Source: an uncultured Clostridia bacterium (lineage in GTDB: Bacteria; Bacillota; Clostridia; TANB77; CAG-508). From it: a stretch of DNA of 64,000 nucleotides. Positions within the stretch are counted from its first letter, which is position 1; the number at the start of each line of letters is the position of its first letter. This document shows, in pieces, positions 13,834 through 29,915 of the stretch. The notes beneath the pieces are model-generated. The model worked only from the letters and a program-made list of their open reading frames with translations, was not told where the DNA came from and made no database searches. The position numbers and the translations under genes were made by a program. Where the stretch lies: contig CAKPLT010000006.1 of assembly GCA_934167755.1 (NCBI GenBank), forward strand, positions 14,189 to 78,188. The letters are read 5' to 3'.

Positions 13834-14068
13834 TCCCTCCTAAAGGTTCTTTTATTTTTAATTTCTGACCTTCGGTTTATGTTTATATTTATATCACAAT
13901 TTTTAGTAAGTTACAAGGCTTTTTTTGAATTTCTATTAATTTTCGTTATTCGGTTTTTTAGTTAATTTTTTTCGTAATTCATTGAAATATAAGATTTGAA
14001 TGAAATTTCAAATATGCACAGAGGATTACAATGAAAAACTTATATTTCAATGGATTATGATATAAATT

Positions 14069-15316
14069 TTAAAGCACTGATAAAGCTTTTAAAATTCCAA
14101 GCTTTCCATATTCATATGTAAGTCCACCTTGCATATATGCAATATAAGGTTCACGAATTGGGCCATCACAACTAAGTTCTATTGTTGAGCCTTCTGTAAA
14201 TGTACCAGCTGCCATTATTACTTGATCATCATATCCAGCCATTCCACTAGGCTCTGGAATAACATTACTATCTATAGGTGATCCCATTTGGATACCTTGA
14301 CAAAATTTTATTAATTTTTCAGCCTCTCCAAGTTCTATTGTCTGAACTATATCAGCTCTTGTTTCATCATATTTAGGATTTACATTATATCCAAGTTTTT
14401 CTAATATTCTACTTGCGAATATTGCTGTCTTAACAGCACTTGCTACAACACTTGGTGCAAAAAACAAACCTTTTATAAATGCTGTATTTTGATTCAATGA
14501 TGGTCCTATTTCTTTTCCAACTCCAGGTGCAGTTAATCTTTCAGCACATAATTCTATTAAATCTTTTTTTCCCGCGATATATGCCCCACTTGTTGCAATT
14601 CCTGCACCTAAGTTTTTCATTAATGACCCAACAACAATATCAGCTCCAACATCAGTAGGTTCTTTTTCTTCAACAAATTCTCCATAGCAATTGTCAACCA
14701 TAATAATTACATCTTTATTGATTTCTCTAATTGCTTTTATTGCCTTTTCAATTTTATCAATTGTTAAACTTTTTCTTGTTGAATATCCTTTTGATCTTTG
14801 AATTTCAACTAATTTAATATCATTTTTTGATACTCTTTCTTTTATTTTTTCAATATTAAAGTCATCATTTATTAATTCAATTTGTTCGTATTTAACACCA
14901 AATTCTTTTAAAGAACTCTTACTTTGCTCTTTGCTTATACCAATGATTGTTTGTAATGTGTCATAAGGTGAACCTGATATACTTAGCATTGTATCACCTG
15001 GGCGTAATATTCCAAACAATGTTACTGCTAATGCATGTGTTCCTGATATTAATTGGCTTCTTACTAATGCATCTTCTGTATTAAAAATTTTTGCATAAAT
15101 TTCTTCTATTTTATTTCTTCCAGCTTCATCAATCCCATATCCTGTTGATGAATGTAAATGCATTTCTGACAATCCACATTTTTGAAATGTATTTAATACT
15201 TTTAGACTATTTAGTTCCTTTATTTCTTCTACTTTTTCAAATTGTATTTGAACTTCTTTTTCAACTTCTTTTGATAATTCTAATATTTCTTTTTTTATTC
15301 CAAATTGCTCGTACAT
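14069..15316 (-). CDS. PLP-dependent Cys/Met-metabolism family protein (aluminium-resistance / YnbB-like)
   Basis: 415 aa. SSTGYGIDEAGR, SGTHA and MKNLGAG resemble the YnbB / aluminium-resistance family. Confidence 0.75.
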   Translation of the reverse strand: MYEQFGIKKEILELSKEVEKEVQIQFEKVEEIKELNSLKVLNTFQKCGLSEMHLHSSTGYGIDEAGRNKIEEIYAKIFNTEDALVRSQLISGTHALAVTLFGILRPGDTMLSISGSPYDTLQTIIGISKEQSKSSLKEFGVKYEQIELINDDFNIEKIKERVSKNDIKLVEIQRSKGYSTRKSLTIDKIEKAIKAIREINKDVIIMVDNCYGEFVEEKEPTDVGADIVVGSLMKNLGAGIATSGAYIAGKKDLIELCAERLTAPGVGKEIGPSLNQNTAFIKGLFFAPSVVASAVKTAIFASRILEKLGYNVNPKYDETRADIVQTIELGEAEKLIKFCQGIQMGSPIDSNVIPEPSGMAGYDDQVIMAAGTFTEGSTIELSCDGPIREPYIAYMQGGLTYEYGKLGILKALSVL

Positions 15317-15386
15317 ACTTTTTCTCCTTTTTACAATCTGCTTATATTATAGCACTTTTTAAAGAAAAAGCAAGAATACAATTTAT

Positions 15387-16121
15387 CTATCCAGTCTTAC
15401 TCATAATATCTTTTTTCATTTTATTAATAATTTTCTTTTCAAGTCTAGAAATATAGCTCTGTGAAATTCCTAATTCATCAGCTACCTCTTTTTGAGTTTT
15501 TTCTTTTCCACTAATAAATCCAAACCTCATTTCCATTATATTTTTTTCTCTATCATTTAATTTTTTTATAGCCTCTTTTAAAAGCTTCATATCAACTTCA
15601 TCTTCTAACTTTCTATATGTAATATCTGGGTCTGTACCTAAAATATCTGATAATAGTAATTCATTTCCATCACTATCTTTATTTAACGGCTCATCAATTG
15701 AAACTTCTGATTTTATTTTATTATTTCTTCTTAAATACATTAAGATTTCATTTTCAATACATCTAGATGCATATGTTGCAAGCTTTATTTTCTTTTCTAC
15801 ATTAAATGTATTTACTCCTTTCATTAACCCTATTGTACCTATAGAAATTAAGTCTTCTATTCCAATACCAGTATTCTCAAACTTTTTAGCAATATAAACA
15901 ACCAACCTCAAATTTCTTTCAACAAGTATTTTTCGTGCTTCTACATTTTCATCTGTATCTAATTTTTTTATTGTTTCCTCCTCTTCTTCTGGTGTAAGTG
16001 GAGGTGGTAATGTTTGACTTCCCGCTACATAAAATATTGGCAAAATTTCTTCAATGTTTCCATCTATATATTTTGCACAAATAGAGTCAATACTTTTTTT
16101 TATAAATTCTATTATTTTCAT
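15387..16121 (-). CDS. sigE: Sporulation sigma factor SigE (pro-sigma-E)
   Basis: [72 protein letters not shown] and [12 protein letters not shown] are near-identical in pattern to Bacillus pro-sigma-E. Confidence 0.9.
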
Positions 16122-16247
16122 AGTTTATCACATTCCTTGCATATATTTAGATTTCAGGCAAATCTATAAAGCCGTACTTCATCACCTCTTTTCGTGATTT
16201 TTATTGTACAACTTTTTACTTGCAAAGGCTGTCTTTTTCTATTGTAG

Positions 16248-16283
16248 AAAAAAAGAAATAATCGCTAATTTGCGATTATTTCT
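16248..16283 (-). terminator. Rho-independent terminator directly after the HNH gene, upstream of sigE
   Basis: 12-bp stem AGAAATAATCGC/GCGATTATTTCT (16254-16265 and 16272-16283), followed on the minus strand by 7 T. Confidence 0.75.
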
Positions 16284-16292
16284 ACTTGTTTT

Positions 16293-16952
16293 TTACAAAA
16301 TTATTTCTACATTATCAAGTTGAATCACAGGTAATTTCTTTATTCCTGTATTTTTAGCATACATTACAGCAAGGAAACCATCTAATACAAAGCCATTTCT
16401 ATCAATGATAATAGGTTTCTGAAAATGATGATATGTTTCATAATATTTTACAATTTTCTGGTATTTTTTGCTTTTATAATTTTCGTCTAAATCGAATATT
16501 ACAATCAGACTAGATATTTCTTCTTCTCCCAACCATTCTTGTGGGATATCAAATTCTATCCATTCTCTTATATAGTCCTGATACTTCTTTATTTTCTTTC
16601 TGAATACATCTACTTCTCCTTTTTCTTTAGCCTTCAAAAATGCCTTATATTGACTTGTATTTAAATTTCCTTTTTCATTATTGCACTTTTTACAACTTGG
16701 TAGCATATTATTAGTAATAGTTGGTCCTCCAAATTCCTGTGGGTACATATGATCTATTGTTACTTCATCTTTTCCAATTTTCTCTCTGCAATAGCAACAC
16801 CGGTGTTTTCCTTTAATTTGGTAAGTTAATTCAGTCATTACCTTCCGAAATGATAAGTCTCTACTAATTTTAAGCACGCCATCTTCAATAAATGCACCTT
16901 TAGAATTATTTTGTCCTTCCATAAAAAATTTTCTTGGTAACTCAATAATCAT
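16293..16952 (-). CDS. HNH endonuclease with a C-terminal degenerate ParB/Srx-like domain
   Basis: HNH zinc-finger pattern CCYC-x11-DH-x15-N-x5-CKKCNNEK. The C-terminal IIIDRNGFVLDGFLAVMYAKNTGIKKLPV resembles a ParB N-terminal domain in which DGHHR has become DGFLA. Confidence 0.7.
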   Translation of the reverse strand: MIIELPRKFFMEGQNNSKGAFIEDGVLKISRDLSFRKVMTELTYQIKGKHRCCYCREKIGKDEVTIDHMYPQEFGGPTITNNMLPSCKKCNNEKGNLNTSQYKAFLKAKEKGEVDVFRKKIKKYQDYIREWIEFDIPQEWLGEEEISSLIVIFDLDENYKSKKYQKIVKYYETYHHFQKPIIIDRNGFVLDGFLAVMYAKNTGIKKLPVIQLDNVEIIL

Positions 16953-16994
16953 TTTATTACCTCCTCTATATTTTTTTACATTATATATGCTTTT

Positions 16995-17882
16995 TTAAAT
17001 TAAATCAAGACCCACTAAAGCACGATATTCTCCCCTTTTAGTTAAAGATTTATCATATATCCCTATTATCACATTTTTAGTAATTTTTTTATCCTCTTCA
17101 TTTTCAACTTCTATTTCATCAGCTTTAATTCCAAGTAACATTCCATTTGTTTTTCCCAAAGATGAAAATGGTATACATCTTAATTTTGATATATATTGAT
17201 TTTGTTGTTCTTCTGGAATTTTACTTAAATCCCCTCCAAGTATCATATCTAAATTATTTAACATTTCCTTTGGAAGAATGTCATATAATAAACTACTTTC
17301 TACTATAACTACTGGAGTATTTGTTATAGGTTCTTTAGCTAAATTTCCAGTGTCTATCATAGCCTTTGTATTTACCATCTGTCCATTAATTTTTATTCTA
17401 ATTTTGCAGTACATATTATTTGAATTAATTTTAGTCTTTATTATTTTTATAGAAATCTTAATTATAATAAATGCAACTATTGCACCTAAAAAAATAACTT
17501 TTAAAGCATAATCTCCAACGAACATCCCATTTCTTATTAAAGCATTTTGAGGTTTTATAACATAAATTAAATATAATGCCACTCCACCAAACACAAAAGA
17601 TGTTAAATAAAATATAAAAACTTGTTTTAATAATTTTTTTATTGACTGTGGATTAAACCCTACATATACAATTATAATTGATAAAATAGCCTTTGATATT
17701 ATTGATGTATATATCGGTAATTCTGTTACATATGTAATGATTGCATATATGCTCCCTATAGCACTTGCTATTATTATTCTTATTGTCTTTGGTTTTATTT
17801 TTAATATTATTCCAGTTGCATATAAGATTATTGCATTCATTACTAAATTTTCTAAAAATATTATATCTATGTATATAGTTAT
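16995..17882 (-). CDS. spoIIGA: Sporulation aspartic protease SpoIIGA (pro-sigma-E processing)
   Basis: Polytopic N-terminal half and a C-terminal half with AMIDTGNLAKEPITNTPVVIV (DSGN/DTGN active site). The conserved N-terminus (T)IYIDIIFLENLVMNAIILYATGIILK lies upstream of the first ATG (17840) and reaches an ATA at 17882, 7 nt after GGGTG. Confidence 0.85.
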   Translation of the reverse strand: MTIYIDIIFLENLVMNAIILYATGIILKIKPKTIRIIIASAIGSIYAIITYVTELPIYTSIISKAILSIIIVYVGFNPQSIKKLLKQVFIFYLTSFVFGGVALYLIYVIKPQNALIRNGMFVGDYALKVIFLGAIVAFIIIKISIKIIKTKINSNNMYCKIRIKINGQMVNTKAMIDTGNLAKEPITNTPVVIVESSLLYDILPKEMLNNLDMILGGDLSKIPEEQQNQYISKLRCIPFSSLGKTNGMLLGIKADEIEVENEEDKKITKNVIIGIYDKSLTKRGEYRALVGLDLI

Positions 17883-17977
17883 AACAAATCACCCTTTTCT
17901 TTTTTGCTATTAATTATATACCTTTACTTTTGCAAATGATGTTGAATTTTGAAAGTTAAAAATAAGAAATGCAAGTA

Positions 17978-18048
17978 GAAGTTACCAGTGGGGACACTCA
18001 TTAATGGTAACTTTTTGACCAAATATGAGTGTCCCCACTGGTAACTTC
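17978..18048. repeat. Family-2 repeat: 71-bp palindrome (24-nt perfect arms)
   Basis: GAAGTTACCAGTGGGGACACTCAT (17978-18001) and ATGAGTGTCCCCACTGGTAACTTC (18025-18048). It abuts the stop codon of the 18048..19739 gene. Confidence 0.9.
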
Positions 18049-19739
18049 TAAAAATGTTTTCCTTTTTTTCTAGAAATATTATTATTAATTTTATCATTTT
18101 GATAATCTATTTTATAATTTTTGCTTCTTGCAATATCTTCTATATAGTTTGTTCCATCAAATCCTGTTTCATTTTTACTTTCTGTATCAGCAATGTTATT
18201 TGCATCTTCTAATCCTGAATTTATTTGCATTTCTGCTGTTTCAGAAAGTACTTGATGTTCAGCAAGTGCCTTATCTAGTTCTTCTCCCCCTGGAAATTCT
18301 AAGTCTTCTTCTTCATTTTTTTCTTTTGAAATTTTAACTTTTAAAATAATTGCTATTACTATTAGTATTATTAAAACAGCTATAATTATTATTTTTATTA
18401 TTTCTTCTTTTCCCCATGTTGATGGTTTTAACCAACTAACTTTTTCTTCTTCTGATAATTCTTTGTTAACAATTATTTGATATGTTGCTGTTTTATCTTC
18501 TTTCTCATTTCTAACTAAAATTGTTATTGTGTTTTCTCCTAATGATAATCCTTCATTTCCATATATTTCTACAGTTGTGTCATCATCTGTTGCAATTGTT
18601 CTTATGTCTAAAGAATCAATATCTTCTTTCAACTCCACTTTATATTCATATGTTCCTGTTTTAAAACTTGGATTTAATGTTAACCCATTTATTTCTAATG
18701 ATGATAGCCCAAATTCGTCTTTTGAACTAGTTGTTGCAGTTGCATTTTTTTCTCCTCTTGTTACTTCTATAGTGTATGTTTGTGTTGTTCCATTTTCAGC
18801 TGTAACTTGAATTACTATAGTGTTTTTTCCATTTTTTAATTGTGTTTTTCCTGTTCCTGTTACTTTGGCTTTATCACTTGTTGCTTCTGCATATACTTCT
18901 ACTTCTTCTACATCTTTTGGTACTTGTACACTGTATTGCGTTTTATCTTTTTTAAATCCTGAAAAATCATATTTATCTGGTCTTATTCCAAGACTTTTTA
19001 AAGTTGCATCTGAACTTACTTGTGTTTGTGCATTTTCTTCGTCTGCAGTTCTTCTTTTTATTGTTAGTTTATATGTTTGTGTAGTTTTTCCATCTTCTGC
19101 CATTACATTTACTTTTATTTCATTGTTTCCTTCTTTTAATGTAACTTTTCCAGTTCCAGATGTTACTTTTGCTCCTTTTACAGGTGTTGCTACTACAGTT
19201 ATCTCTGAAACGCTATTGGGAACTTCGTGTGTATATTTATATATATTTTTTTTGAATCCTTTAAAATCATTTGGCGTTATTTCTAAGTTACTAAGTTTTG
19301 CCTCAGTTGATTTTGATTCAGTTGTATTGCCACTAGTTGTACCATTATTAGAATTATTCTCATTAGATGAACTTGTGCTCTTTATATTGACAGATACTGT
19401 TCCTGATTTTTTTTCATCATTTGCCGTATCACTATCAGCAATAGTTCCTGACACATTTATCTTTACAGTTCCTGAGGTTCCTGCTGTACAATTTACAGTT
19501 AAACTATTATTTCCAATCCATTCATAAGTTTTATCTACTTTCCCATTTTCCGCAGATATATTTACATATCCTTCTCCTCCACTTACTTTTATAGTAACCA
19601 TAAAAGTTTCTCCTGGATTAACTTCACTCTTATTTGATGTAACAGACATCGAAACTGTAGCCCAAGACACATTATTACAAATATTTATTGTAAATATAAA
19701 TATTAACATTAGTATAACATTTCTAACAGTATTTTTCAC
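18048..19739 (-). CDS. Membrane-anchored surface protein with three cadherin-like beta-sandwich repeats
   Basis: Signal peptide, then an Ig/cohesin-like N-terminal module. Three ~95-aa repeats follow (L..L.I.P..F.GFKK....Y...VP..V..V.V.A...KGAKVTGTGK..L..G.N.I...V.AEDG.T.QTY...I.R). A TM helix lies near residue 445, followed by an acidic tail. Confidence 0.6.
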   Translation of the reverse strand: MKNTVRNVILMLIFIFTINICNNVSWATVSMSVTSNKSEVNPGETFMVTIKVSGGEGYVNISAENGKVDKTYEWIGNNSLTVNCTAGTSGTVKINVSGTIADSDTANDEKKSGTVSVNIKSTSSSNENNSNNGTTSGNTTESKSTEAKLSNLEITPNDFKGFKKNIYKYTHEVPNSVSEITVVATPVKGAKVTSGTGKVTLKEGNNEIKVNVMAEDGKTTQTYKLTIKRRTADEENAQTQVSSDATLKSLGIRPDKYDFSGFKKDKTQYSVQVPKDVEEVEVYAEATSDKAKVTGTGKTQLKNGKNTIVIQVTAENGTTQTYTIEVTRGEKNATATTSSKDEFGLSSLEINGLTLNPSFKTGTYEYKVELKEDIDSLDIRTIATDDDTTVEIYGNEGLSLGENTITILVRNEKEDKTATYQIIVNKELSEEEKVSWLKPSTWGKEEIIKIIIIAVLIILIVIAIILKVKISKEKNEEEDLEFPGGEELDKALAEHQVLSETAEMQINSGLEDANNIADTESKNETGFDGTNYIEDIARSKNYKIDYQNDKINNNISRKKGKHF

Positions 19740-27242: not shown

Positions 27243-28304
27243 TTAAAGAGAATTTAACTCAACTATTTCCACATTTGTATAAAAATGCTTAATAATTTCT
27301 TCAAATGTTGAGCCTGATTTTGCTAAAGCATCAGCCCCTGTCTGGCTCATTCCAACACCATGACCATATCCTGTTACTGAAAATGTAATATTATCTCCAT
27401 CTATAGAAAATGTAAAATTAGTTGATTTTAATCCTAATATTGTTCTTGCCTCAGTACCAGCAATTTCTTTATTTCCAAACTTAATTGTCTTTACTCTTCC
27501 ACTTGTTGTAAGTTCCATTATTTTTATGCAATCCGATTGAGAAAAATCAATTTCACAGTCAGGATATCTTTCTTTTATTTTGTTTAATAAATCTTGCTTA
27601 GAAATTTGAACTTGTGAACTGTATTGTGTATATCCATCTTCACCTGATGTTTCTACAGATTTTAAATATGGGTAATCAATTTCTCCCCATATGTTTACTG
27701 AACTTTCTGTTACTCCTCCACTGTTTGAATGAAAAAACGCATTTATAAGTTCACCATTATATGTAATAATTTTTCCTTTTGTTGAATTTACTGCTTCTGT
27801 AATTTTGTTCCAATTACTTTCAGCCTCTTCTGCACTCCATTTTGACATTCTCTCTTCTTTGCTTATCCATGCTTGGCAACATGCATAATTATCGCATATG
27901 TCTGCACCAGGATGTTTACTTGAATTATGGCTAATCTGATAAATTGTATATGTTCTAGCAACTACAGCCTGGGCTTTTAATGCTTCTGCTTCGAAGTTTG
28001 CTGGCATTTCACTTGAAACTACTCCATACAAATACTCATCTAAATCCACTTCTTCTATCTGACCTGTTGTAGAATGTAATAATTTTATTGTTCTTGAATT
28101 ATCATCACTTCGATTTTGTTGATTTTCTTCTACATTTGTAGTTATTTGCTCTACATTCTTGCTCTCTTGTTGTTCTGTTGTACTGTCTTGATTATTGGCT
28201 GTTTCAACTACTTCCTGTGATTTGCCAGGAGTTACTGTACAAATTGCAGGTGCTATAAAAAAAACTATAACAAATCCTAAAAAATATATAAAAAATTTCT
28301 TCAT
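27243..28304 (-). CDS. spoIID: Stage II sporulation protein D (lytic transglycosylase)
   Basis: AQAVVARTYT, FHSNSGGVTE, GHGVGMSQTGA. ATG 28304 lies after GGAGG. Confidence 0.9.
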   Translation of the reverse strand: MKKFFIYFLGFVIVFFIAPAICTVTPGKSQEVVETANNQDSTTEQQESKNVEQITTNVEENQQNRSDDNSRTIKLLHSTTGQIEEVDLDEYLYGVVSSEMPANFEAEALKAQAVVARTYTIYQISHNSSKHPGADICDNYACCQAWISKEERMSKWSAEEAESNWNKITEAVNSTKGKIITYNGELINAFFHSNSGGVTESSVNIWGEIDYPYLKSVETSGEDGYTQYSSQVQISKQDLLNKIKERYPDCEIDFSQSDCIKIMELTTSGRVKTIKFGNKEIAGTEARTILGLKSTNFTFSIDGDNITFSVTGYGHGVGMSQTGADALAKSGSTFEEIIKHFYTNVEIVELNSL

Positions 28305-28346
28305 TCTGCCTCCATATAGATTACTCAAATTCATTCTCCCAAAAAC

Positions 28347-29075
28347 TTAGCCTATGAGTTTTTTCTTCATTTTGTCTAATATTTTTCTTTCAATTCTAGA
28401 AACCTGAACTTGTGTAATGCCTAAAATTTTTGAAACCTGCATTTGTGTTTTTTGCTTATAATATCTAAGCATTATAATCTCCTTTTCTTTGTCATTTAAT
28501 TCACAAATCAACTTTTTAATAGTAATTCTATTAGTAATCTCTGTCTGCTCATCTCTTCCAGTAGAAATTTGTTCCAAAATACTTACTGTTTTATCTGTTT
28601 TATTATCTTTATATTTTGCACTTTCAATAGAATCAACTGGTCTTGTTGAATCCATTGCCATAGTAATTTCTTCTTTTGAAATCTTAAGTTCTTTTGAAAT
28701 CTCTTCCAAAGTTATATCTCTTCCATATTTATTAAAATATTCTTTTTGTAATTCTAATATTTTTATATTTAATTCTTTAATACTCCTACTTACTTTAATT
28801 GGTCCATCATCTCTTATGTATCTTTTTATTTCTCCTAAAATGTATGGTACTGCATATGTTGAAAGACGAACTTCAAATCTTGTATCAAATCTTTGTATTG
28901 CTTTAATAAAACCAATACTTCCAATTTGATATAAATCTTCTATATCATATCCTCTTCCACTAAATCTTCGAACTATGCTCCAAATTAGTCCATTGTTATC
29001 TTCTATTAATTTTGTCATATCTTCTTGACTACCATTTTGGGCTTTTTCGATGATTTTCATATTATTCTCATACAC
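28347..29075 (-). CDS. sigF: Sporulation sigma factor SigF
   Basis: Group 3 sigma factor (LIWSIVRRFSGRGYDIEDLYQIGSIGFIKAIQRFD, STYAVPYILGEIKRYIRDDG, ITQVQVSRIERK). It lies directly after spoIIAA-spoIIAB. GTG start 7 nt after GGGGAG. Confidence 0.85.
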   Translation of the reverse strand: MYENNMKIIEKAQNGSQEDMTKLIEDNNGLIWSIVRRFSGRGYDIEDLYQIGSIGFIKAIQRFDTRFEVRLSTYAVPYILGEIKRYIRDDGPIKVSRSIKELNIKILELQKEYFNKYGRDITLEEISKELKISKEEITMAMDSTRPVDSIESAKYKDNKTDKTVSILEQISTGRDEQTEITNRITIKKLICELNDKEKEIIMLRYYKQKTQMQVSKILGITQVQVSRIERKILDKMKKKLIG

Positions 29076-29590
29076 TATTCATCTCCCCTTATTGTAGCTT
29101 CTTCTCTTGTTTCAGTGTTTTCACCAATTACACTAAATGCAAATTCTTCTTTTTTATTAGAACTTTTTATAGTCTTTCTCATAGTAACTTTTGTTCCTAA
29201 TCCTAATACTGATTCAACCTGAACATCATCCATAAAACTTTCCATTATTGTGAACCCCATTCCAGACCTTTCTAAATTTGCTTTTGTCGTATATAGTGGT
29301 TGTTTTGCTATTTCTACATTTTCAATTCCTTTTCCAGAATCTGATATCTCTATAAATATTTCATTTTTTCTAATTTTACACACAAGTTTTACTGTTCCTA
29401 AACTCTCCTCATATCCATGGATTATTGAATTAGTTACAGCTTCAGATACAGCTGTTTTTATATCTGCTATTTCTTCAAGTGTCGGATCTAATTGTGCTAC
29501 AAATGCTGCAACAGATATTCTTGCAAATGCTTCATTATTTGATTTGCTTAAAAATTCTATTTTCATTTCATTATCATATATGTTGTTCAT
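29075..29590 (-). CDS. spoIIAB: Anti-sigma-F factor / serine kinase SpoIIAB
   Basis: [42 protein letters not shown] and [17 protein letters not shown]. It carries about 25 extra C-terminal residues relative to the Bacillus protein as I remember it. Confidence 0.9.
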
Positions 29591-29915
29591 TTCGTACCTC
29601 CTTTTTTGTTTTTATTTCTGGAATAATTTTTAACACTCCACTCATTTCAAATATCTTTCTTACTGGTGTTGTTAAATTGGTAACTTCTACTTTTCCTCCA
29701 AGCATATCTACTAATTTATATCTTCCTATTAATAGTCCTATTCCTGCACTGTCCATAAAAGAAACTTTATTAAAATCAAATATAACTTCTTTAGGCATAT
29801 ATCTTTCAATTTCATTATCTAATCTCCTCCTTATTTTCTGAACAATACATTCATCTATATCTTCGCTTATTTCGAAGATTAACCTCTTGTCCTTTTTTTG
29901 ATAAATACTCTCCAT
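29574..29915 (-). CDS. spoIIAA: Anti-anti-sigma factor SpoIIAA (STAS domain)
   Basis: STAS pattern with the phosphorylatable Ser context [14 protein letters not shown]. First gene of the spoIIA operon. Confidence 0.85.

Follow-up and report, generated by a model that had tools for sequence, protein, structure and literature searches.

A nuclease gene between spoIIGA and sigE and the history of a split spoIIG operon in uncultured gut Clostridia

In Bacillus subtilis, Clostridium acetobutylicum and C. difficile, spoIIGA and sigE lie side by side in the spoIIG operon, spoIIGA-sigE(-sigG), which is read from one Spo0A-dependent sigma-A promoter (PMC3789822). Here we analyse a locus in which this arrangement is broken. 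The window, by which we mean the whole stretch of DNA analysed (64,000 nucleotides, positions 14,189 to 78,188 of contig CAKPLT010000006.1, assembly GCA_934167755.1, from an uncultured Clostridia bacterium), carries between spoIIGA, the gene of the protease that processes pro-sigma-E, and sigE, the gene of pro-sigma-E itself, an open reading frame (ORF) of 219 aa in which an HNH nuclease domain is joined to a ParB/Srx-like fold. A hairpin with a T-run follows this ORF, and all relevant features are on the minus strand, in the order spoIIGA, ORF, hairpin, sigE. A sequence-only reading of the window had proposed that a selfish or domesticated nuclease gene, ending in its own terminator, had uncoupled pro-sigma-E from its protease. 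Did the nuclease gene split the operon, and what kind of gene is it? The comparison with relatives presented here corrects the causal story: a duplication of the terminator and promoter, not a selfish gene, would have broken the spoIIG operon and made room for the insertion.

The terminator/promoter block before sigE

The gap between spoIIGA and sigE (16122-16994) is, as first read, 873 bp long. spoIIGA (listed ORF 16995-17840, starting at ATG 17840) was identified by a Pfam Peptidase_U4 match (E 8e-74), and sigE (15387-16121) by two NCBIfam SigE equivalogs (372 and 360 bits, both over cut-off). The hairpin at 16248-16283 has a 12-bp stem (16283-16254) and the T-run TTTTTT (16253-16248), in agreement with the sequence-only reading. 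A terminator scan of 14000-18200 found it to be the sole terminator-like site on the minus strand; its RNA has a minimum free energy of -16.4 kcal/mol (z = -5.7), and none of 200 shuffles was equally stable. The palindrome occurs once in the window. Rfam gave sub-threshold matches only at the hairpin, and a known RNA element was dropped as a candidate.

Is this hairpin the nuclease gene's own terminator? Empty sites were found by a metagenome scan with a SigE alignment, which yielded 80 loci with sigE; a SpoIIGA homologue search for such sites returned relatives at ≥73% identity only. Close relatives of group (i) have the order spoIIGA-HNH-sigE, with a gap of 825-882 nt. In group (ii), about 9 lineages, spoIIGA and sigE stand ~150-185 nt apart with no HNH gene between them, and group (iii), composed of more distant relatives (SigE ≤83%), has a gap of 14-83 nt, except for two loci with 130 and 249 nt. 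The HNH-less close relatives have the hairpin, T-run and promoter-like block unchanged, so that the hairpin does not belong to the nuclease gene; as a part of the inserted unit it was also dropped on the ground that no copy of the gene in another context has it, and the HNH-less relatives and outgroups do. Across 29 distinct sequences, with or without HNH, the hairpin, the T-run and the next ~60 nt are almost invariant and far more constrained than the synonymous sites of the flanking genes, the conserved stretch reading CTACAATAAGAAAAGACAG, ~21 nt, GTTGTACAAT, ~14 nt, GAGGTGA. In the hairpin alignment 98.4% of cells are paired, with one compensatory A-U/C-G change in the top pair, as expected of a predicted intrinsic terminator whose structure is conserved among relatives.

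The outgroups suggest where the block came from. Their gene order is ftsA-ftsZ-[T-P]-spoIIGA-sigE-ynbB (T, terminator; P, promoter), and the hairpin lies 16-60 nt past the ftsZ stop codon and ~100 nt 5' of spoIIGA, followed by GACAG, ~21 nt, TAsAAT, AGGTGA and the ATG that is the spoIIGA start codon. Because the block lies between ftsZ and spoIIGA in the outgroups, that before sigE is, by homology, the ftsZ terminator plus the spoIIG promoter. In the window this sigE-proximal copy, P (16181-16247), contains CTACAATAgAAAAAGACAG (GACAG 16233-16229), a 21-nt spacer and the -10 box TACAAT (16208-16203), and ends in what alignment with the outgroup spoIIGA upstream block marks as a relic Shine-Dalgarno (SD) sequence, GAGGTGAT (16188-16181). 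In B. subtilis the Spo0A-activated spoIIG promoter is unusual in its spacing of 22 bp, which the 21 nt between GACA and the -10 here resemble. Inspection by eye gave no convincing match to 0A boxes or alternative-sigma motifs in the block.

The clade of the window (clade B) and its sister clade A (L104, L107-L124), in which the HNH gene is missing throughout, share the order ftsA-ftsZ-T'-P'-spoIIGA-(HNH)-[T-P]-leader-sigE-ynbB. T' is a new, lineage-variable hairpin and P' a diverged copy of the same promoter, which in the window occupies 17888-17950, with ..CAACATCATTTGCAAAAGTAAAGGTA TATAAT (17918-17913) and the SD GGGTGAT (17894-17888). The outgroup block, P and P' align as three homologous promoter classes, and both spoIIGA and sigE appear to keep sister promoters. 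Between P and sigE lies a variable leader (16122-16180) that holds a short stem, TAGATTT..AAATCTA, the weak ribosome-binding site (RBS) AAGGAA (16138-16133) already remarked on in the sequence-only reading, and TTTATAGAT, which may be a relic of the 5' coding end of spoIIGA. Since the region before sigE keeps both the SD and this spoIIGA-like sequence, we infer a tandem duplication of T-P-5'spoIIGA followed by a deletion. The split of spoIIGA from sigE, which exists in all of clade A+B with or without HNH, would then have come from duplication or rearrangement of the operon's own control region. The modest promoter before sigE remarked on in the sequence-only reading is in this light not part of the insertion but an older copy of the spoIIG promoter, also present in the HNH-less relatives. 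Promoter function of P, P' and the -10 box of the nuclease gene, and terminator function of the hairpin, are predicted from sequence.

These comparisons make it hardly credible that the operon was broken by an HNH gene that brought its own terminator, and that sigE had to gain a promoter in consequence. The gene does lie between spoIIGA and sigE, directly 5' of a strong terminator, and which event came first at the base of the clade is beyond proof, clade A having possibly lost an HNH gene; but the identical block is found in all HNH-less relatives of the group, it is homologous to the outgroup ftsZ terminator and spoIIG promoter, and the hairpin accompanies no other family copy. A remnant of the insert in the clade A spacers was rejected as a candidate, the similarity not being significant (p = 0.26-0.36). 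Sitting between spoIIGA and the terminator, the insert would exert no polarity on sigE. Pro-sigma-E and the protease that processes it are thus physically unlinked in a natural lineage, each with a paralogous promoter copy, and the split spoIIG is a testable case of co-regulation outlasting operon splitting.

Further changes were seen around the two genes. In the window and in L009, ftsA-ftsZ was not found 5' of spoIIGA and other genes stand there instead; in the window, which has no ftsA or ftsZ at all, these are two large ORFs (563 and 569 aa). Since ftsA-ftsZ is gone from this position, a further rearrangement in this lineage is indicated. The ftsZ-spoIIGA interval is variable, with a PDDEXK_2 (transposase-like) gene in L006/L007 (2770-3726, minus strand) and about 3.3 kb of additional DNA in L089. 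L014, L096-L099 and L132 have lost the variable sigE leader altogether, so that the relic SD GAGGTGAT directly precedes sigE, and sigE of this lineage appears to begin at ATT, or at a GTG inside the SD. spoIIGA begins with ATG ACA ATT TAT in the outgroups and clade A; the same position reads ATA throughout clade B, including the window, except for ATT in L014 (clade B examples of ATA or ATT are L011-L015, L090, L102 and L169). This codon (17880-17882, minus strand, in the window) lies 5-7 nt past the SD GGGTGAT, and because the 14 codons after it (TIYIDIIFLENLV) are in frame and conserved, with changes that are synonymous, translation of SpoIIGA probably begins at a non-AUG codon and not at ATG 17840, so that the gene with its homologous N-terminal codons would cover 16995-17882.

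The HNH-ParB/Srx protein and its cassette

The nuclease ORF (16293-16952) consists of an N-terminal beta/alpha element (residues 1-47), a zinc-finger HNH domain (~50-96), a helical linker (99-132) and a ParB/Srx fold (~137-219). It contains the complete HNH core motif CCYC..DH..N..CKKCNNEK that had been noticed in the sequence, together with a C-terminal LDGFLA. Residues 52-96 match Pfam HNH_5 (PF14279; 39.1 bits, cut-off 27.5, E 7e-10) and HNH (PF01844; 34.8 bits, cut-off 21.4, E 2e-8). C52, C55, D67, H68, N82, C87, C90 and N91 are invariant in an alignment of 31 homologues, the most distant of them 42% identical, and the active site of the zinc-finger HNH is therefore intact in them all. An AlphaFold2 (AF2) model built on the homologue alignment (predicted local distance difference test score 95, predicted template-modelling score 0.89) has a beta-beta-alpha-Me fold, for which Foldseek matched 4h9d and the HNH domains of Cas9 (probability 0.87-1.0). 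Among solved structures the Gme HNH nicking endonuclease 4H9D comes closest, over residues 49-111 (E 5e-13; Foldseek 2e-4), followed by the HNH domains of Cas9 and IscB (PDB and NCBIfam matches).

The C-terminal part had been likened to a ParB/Srx domain with DGFLA in place of DGHHR, and four resources agree. Foldseek matched ParB N-domains, with pNOB8 ParB 5k5d at E 4.9e-4, and further ParB/Srx structures (7bnr, 7ol9, 1vk1, 5ujd and 1yzs, over ~75-88 columns; MxParB, Noc, SbnI and sulfiredoxin are among them); two ParB-like PHROG families were matched, PHROG_26377 at 1e-7 (residues 144-210) and another at 6e-4, beside a PHROG HNH family; a stretch of an ATV 'ParBc domain' protein is 44% identical; and ParB/Srx proteins of BFVD also match. 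Pfam ParBc (PF02195) gave no match at E≤0.1. The family consensus here is PIIxDxNxFLLDGF..AKN, with D191, G192 and A199 invariant, and it lacks the Arg-containing nucleotide-binding or catalytic motif (DGHHR, GxxR, DGQQR), with LDGF in its place. There was no full-length structural neighbour in PDB or BFVD (TM-score normalised to the query ≤0.35) and no DUF262 or DUF1524 match in Pfam, NCBIfam or PADLOC; the PADLOC matches, a weak PtuB (8e-8) and PDC-M01B, were confined to the HNH core. The ORF is an intact two-domain gene, a zinc-finger HNH of the Cas9/IscB/Gme-HNH type with a degenerate ParB/Srx fold, a compact architecture for which the resources searched gave neither a named family nor a structural match over the full length. 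Nuclease activity and sequence specificity are predicted; for a ParB/Srx domain lacking the Arg motif, DNA binding or dimerisation is the most likely role.

How widely is the gene distributed? A search of 5.8 billion proteins gave 59 relatives, nearly all of them 218-226 aa and full length, and a profile search of 1.84 billion cluster representatives gave 129 clusters at 50% identity (E<1e-30), none carrying a name for the family. A scan of one genome per GTDB species gave 86 matches, from which 80 loci in 80 different assemblies were kept. Every one of these assemblies is a metagenome-assembled genome (MAG) of an uncultured member of the gut Clostridia, 'Clostridium sp. CAG:575' and 'Ca. Scatovivens' being examples, and this compact, previously unnamed family is so far known only from such genomes. 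P0338 (151 aa), considered as a pseudogene allele, was dropped as an artefact of a scaffold N-gap or contig end.

The family occupies at least 14 intergenic neighbourhoods. Besides spoIIGA|sigE these include nrdD-nrdG|gatD-murT, the largest class, which is paraphyletic in the HNH tree; spoIIP-sipL-yunB|P-type ATPase, where the gene stands 3-60 nt behind yunB; ATPase|AhpC; radical-SAM|M23 peptidase; FIST|ligA side; and PemK|? (L172). Nearly every copy, across contexts, is preceded by the same leader pattern (TATAAT-like -10, A-run, GGAGGTA, ATG), which is absent from the empty sites. In a set of 77 distinct loci, a -10-like box was seen in 66, a strong SD in 74 and, no more than 110 nt downstream, a terminator-like hairpin in 66. 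Since the leader recurs and 66 of the 77 loci have a downstream hairpin, the unit is best described as a cassette of one gene, usually placed last in an operon and just 5' of a terminator. It measures ~0.7 kb and has its own -10, a strong RBS and the ORF, with no recombinase. In the window the 42-nt leader (16953-16994) has the -10 TATAAT (16985-16980) and the RBS GGAGG (16964-16960), and the promoter scan paired this -10 with TTGATT (17008-17003), inside the 3' end of spoIIGA. The resulting sigma-70-like match, TTGATT-17 nt-TATAAT, spans the junction of spoIIGA and the ORF (17008-16980) and agrees at 10 of 12 positions. No terminator was found in these 42 nt by the scan of 14000-18200. The GC content of the gene is 28.9%, that of the window 27.8%.

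Two arrangements within the family are also of note. A tandem second HNH-ParB member stands beside the first in L031, L054, L063 and L074, which suggests local duplication in some lineages. In the neighbourhood of yunB, the P-type ATPase and AhpC, the cassette lies either 5' or 3' of the ATPase gene (L036, L038, L039, L044 and L045 versus L053, L057, L062 and L064); the two arrangements are interleaved in the HNH tree and could be a second set of reciprocal filled and empty sites.

Filled and empty sites and the lifestyle of the gene

The synteny comparison that the sequence-only reading had called for provided both empty sites and exact boundaries. The empty locus L105 and the filled locus L011 are 97.3% identical in sigE and 95.5% in spoIIGA at the nucleotide level, so this difference is a polymorphism at about the species level; other empty sites are L089, L090, L091, L092, L102 and L103. 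Set against the empty L105 and L091, the insert of L011 comprises the 42-nt leader and the ORF, reaching from the spoIIGA stop codon to AAAAACATGTAAG before the hairpin, and the empty L105-type allele reads spoIIGA 3' end, TGAAAAAACATGTAAG, hairpin. The only repeat is an A-rich direct repeat of 9-10 nt, T(A/G)AAAAA(A/G)CAT, at both ends of the cassette (9/9 in L010).

In a neighbour-joining tree of SpoIIGA plus SigE, the HNH-less L102, L089/L103, L090/L092 and L105 are nested among HNH-bearing lineages, and overall the gene is missing at the spoIIG site in about half of the sampled lineages. Among the filled loci the HNH gene has a ratio of non-synonymous to synonymous divergence (dN/dS) of 0.04-0.19, similar to or below that of spoIIGA. 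Because dN/dS is ~0.1 and synonymous sites are saturated, the cassette is old and mostly vertically inherited, and it appears to have been lost on three occasions or more. On the simplest history, the gene would have been inserted once, long ago, in the ancestor of clade B, passed on vertically under purifying selection and cleanly lost three or four times, perhaps by way of the direct repeat at its ends. The spacer of L089/L103 is similar to the 3' end of the HNH gene with its trailer (p ~0.01, uncorrected for multiple tests), a likeness that is no more than suggestive and would fit a deletion scar. Two loci fit this history less well. The HNH protein of L169 is only 54-61% identical to the rest at this site, and the locus differs in its left junction, with a 79-nt leader, although its flanks are at ordinary clade B distances; the HNH protein of L172, in the PemK context, is 59-67% identical and in the HNH tree groups nearer than L169 to the main set from the spoIIG site. 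Such discordance hints at additional movement.

Mosaic loci were noted in the same set. L100 has spoIIGA and HNH genes near-identical to those of L013 (synonymous divergence, pS, 0.01-0.02) and L014-like sigE and ynbB (pS 0.26 and 0.13), and ynbB is near-identical between L013 and L015 (pS 0.13), with the other genes saturated. The breakpoints of the L100 set are at or near the invariant terminator/promoter block. The L100 mosaic, on a low-coverage contig, is either inter-lineage recombination or a chimeric assembly.

What, then, is the gene? Our preferred explanation, to which as a whole we give an even chance of being right, is that it is a free-standing passenger cassette of the homing-endonuclease type with very low mobility. 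On this account, local duplication or rearrangement in the ancestor of the genus-level group would have turned ftsZ-T-P-spoIIGA-sigE into ftsZ-T'-P'-spoIIGA-T-P-sigE, opening a harmless site for insertion where the spoIIGA transcription unit ends. The HNH cassette would later have settled there, between the spoIIGA stop codon and a terminator foreign to it, to be mostly vertically inherited under purifying selection and lost several times. Its enzyme would nick or cut a specific DNA site and relocate rarely, to operon-end sites by terminators, a tolerated passenger with no part in sigma-E activation. We favour this lifestyle because the unit is a lone nuclease ORF with precise boundaries, at harmless terminator-side sites between conserved genes; because the gene is dispensable in close relatives and shows some discordance between site and lineage; and because the family is also found beside nrd genes, as are phage homing endonuclease genes (PMC2790892). 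The proposal of a selfish or domesticated nuclease insertion thus survives in part: the gene is an insertion relative to the ancestral order, present or absent in very close relatives, and it is not the cause of the uncoupling. The sequence-only reading had also considered that the gene might occupy this position across the whole clade, which, with sporulation-specific co-expression and read-through of the hairpin, would have refuted its inference; it is indeed old and vertical at the site, and it is missing from about half of the sampled lineages.

Several observations weigh against a homing lifestyle. Synonymous divergence (pS) is as far saturated in the HNH gene as in the genes on either side, the trees of the HNH gene and of its flanks broadly agree, and we see no sign of recent horizontal spread. 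Each of the 80 assemblies has the family at one locus and none has copies at two separate sites. Full-length members were found in none of IMG/VR, the GenBank phages and the PLSDB plasmids, which gave single-domain matches only, and mobile vehicles of these kinds were accordingly dropped as carriers. A cycling selfish homing gene is expected to leave pseudogenes, and no decayed family copies were found. Long retention in ~1.5-Mb genomes argues for a benefit to the host. Moreover, all the comparative sequences are MAGs or metagenome contigs, and the trees are neighbour-joining trees without support values.

Much of this evidence would suit a solitary nuclease that benefits its host, in type IV-like or stand-alone defence or in DNA repair, with the ParB/Srx domain as sensor or clamp, the HNH domain as effector, and the varied sites as the outcome of ordinary rearrangement. 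The single locus per genome, nearly all loci being intact without pseudogenes, the dN/dS of ~0.1 with saturated dS and the long retention in small genomes are all in keeping with it, as are the own promoter of constitutive type, the tandem paralogues in L031, L054, L063 and L074, the HNH effectors that PADLOC weakly matched (PDC-M01B and PtuB, the latter at 8e-8) and the pairing of ParB/Srx with HNH, which is the domain logic of GmrSD, BrxU and SspE (PMC4619093). However, those PADLOC matches stop at the HNH core with no PtuA-like partner nearby, the neighbours are housekeeping and sporulation genes, not defence islands, the ParB-like domain is missing the NTP-binding Arg motif, and the domain order is reversed with respect to GmrSD, BrxU and SspE. 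The absence of the gene from the spoIIG site in about half of the lineages, including one of a same-species pair, and the precise cassette boundaries with a leader travelling with the ORF also speak against it, and we consider host benefit of this kind a possible but doubtful explanation. Nor does a role in sporulation, in which the nuclease would be co-transcribed with spoIIGA at sporulation onset (and elsewhere with yunB) and act on DNA at that time, seem other than very unlikely. The ORF is co-oriented with spoIIGA across a 42-nt gap free of terminators, a second context class follows spoIIP-sipL-yunB at 3-60 nt, and the host encodes a sporulation programme; yet only 2 of at least 14 contexts adjoin sporulation genes and the largest class follows nrdD-nrdG, the cassette has its own sigma-A-type -10 everywhere, and the gene is missing from close relatives that share this spoIIG locus.

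Returning to the homing-type passenger, a bolder version of it would see in this family the first cell-borne lineage of free-standing homing endonucleases, belonging neither to phages nor to organelles, which would use a degenerate ParB/Srx fold for target recognition or dimerisation, home to terminator-proximal ends of operons in small-genome gut Clostridia and persist at genus level, the spoIIG site having opened only after the promoter duplication. We regard this version as unlikely. The high-confidence model and the natural pairs of filled and empty alleles are a ready substrate for testing site-specific nicking.

As to the rest of the window, the gene 3' of sigE is not sigG; it is, as had been read from the sequence, YnbB-like (PF06838 match, 14069-15316), and a YycF-like response regulator gene follows, both on the minus strand. 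No sigG-like gene was detected in the window, and a tblastn search with SigE found one other sigma paralogue, sigF (28347-29075), within a spoIIAA-spoIIAB-sigF-spoIID cluster (27243-29915, minus strand; spoIIAB and spoIID over the NCBIfam curated cut-off, spoIIAA and sigF under it). The source organism encodes the early sporulation sigma cascade. At 17977-18049 (minus strand), from the stop codon of the upstream 563-aa ORF, the arms of a perfect 25-bp inverted repeat, AGAAGTTACCAGTGGGGACACTCAT ... ATGAGTGTCCCCACTGGTAACTTCT, enclose a loop of 23 nt. Similar repeats containing GGGGAC/GTCCCC fill the spoIIGA-sigE spacer of the outgroups L136 and L152, and together they may form a dispersed palindromic repeat family.

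Comparison with known systems

The nearest parallel in lifestyle is provided by the free-standing HNH homing endonuclease genes of phages, such as T4 mobE between nrdA and nrdB (PMC2790892, PMC2988022). As with these, the unit is a single nuclease ORF with its own expression signals, intergenic between conserved genes and without a recombinase, it has filled and empty alleles among close relatives, and its family also adjoins nrd genes. Unlike them, it is bacterial-chromosomal, absent from the phage, IMG/VR and plasmid sets searched and limited to one locus per genome; it is old, vertical and under strong purifying selection, with no decayed copies seen; its C-terminal module is a ParB/Srx fold, not NUMOD or a helix-turn-helix; and homing and site specificity are here putative.

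In its catalytic core (residues 49-111) the protein shares the CxxC..DH..N..CxxCN zinc-finger HNH with the Gme HNH nicking endonuclease (PDB 4H9D) and the phage cos-site HNH nickases, which nick DNA at short sites (PMC3592412). Those are single-domain proteins of ~100-130 aa, the phage ones encoded beside terminase genes, whereas the 219-aa protein adds an N-terminal element and a ParB/Srx fold and is not in a prophage. The HNH domain also resembles those of Cas9d and IscB in its D-H..N..N layout, with local NCBIfam matches at 5e-10 and 1e-6 and PDB matches to Cas9 HNH; however, there is no RuvC, bridge helix or guide-RNA module, the score is 38.6 bits against a cut-off of 375, and the HNH domain alone is common.

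Among defence systems, the GmrSD/BrxU/SspE type IV-like nucleases, built of a DUF262 ParB/Srx NTPase and a DUF1524 HNH (PMC4619093), likewise join a ParB/Srx fold to a His-Me/HNH nuclease in one polypeptide that acts alone. The 219-aa protein differs from them in its reversed domain order, in having about one third of their size, in having LDGF where they have DGQQR/GxxR, in giving no DUF262 or DUF1524 match and in lying outside defence islands. Unlike Septu (PtuA/PtuB), it has spoIIGA and sigE as neighbours and no PtuA ATPase gene, and the PtuB match is weak and covers the HNH core only (8e-8).

The canonical spoIIG operon, finally, is matched by the outgroups, which have ftsZ, terminator, promoter and spoIIGA, then sigE 14-83 nt on. 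The clade of the window departs from it in carrying a terminator and promoter copy between spoIIGA and sigE, with the sister promoter 5' of spoIIGA, and in having no adjacent sigG; some members of the clade also bear an unrelated nuclease gene at the end of the spoIIGA unit.

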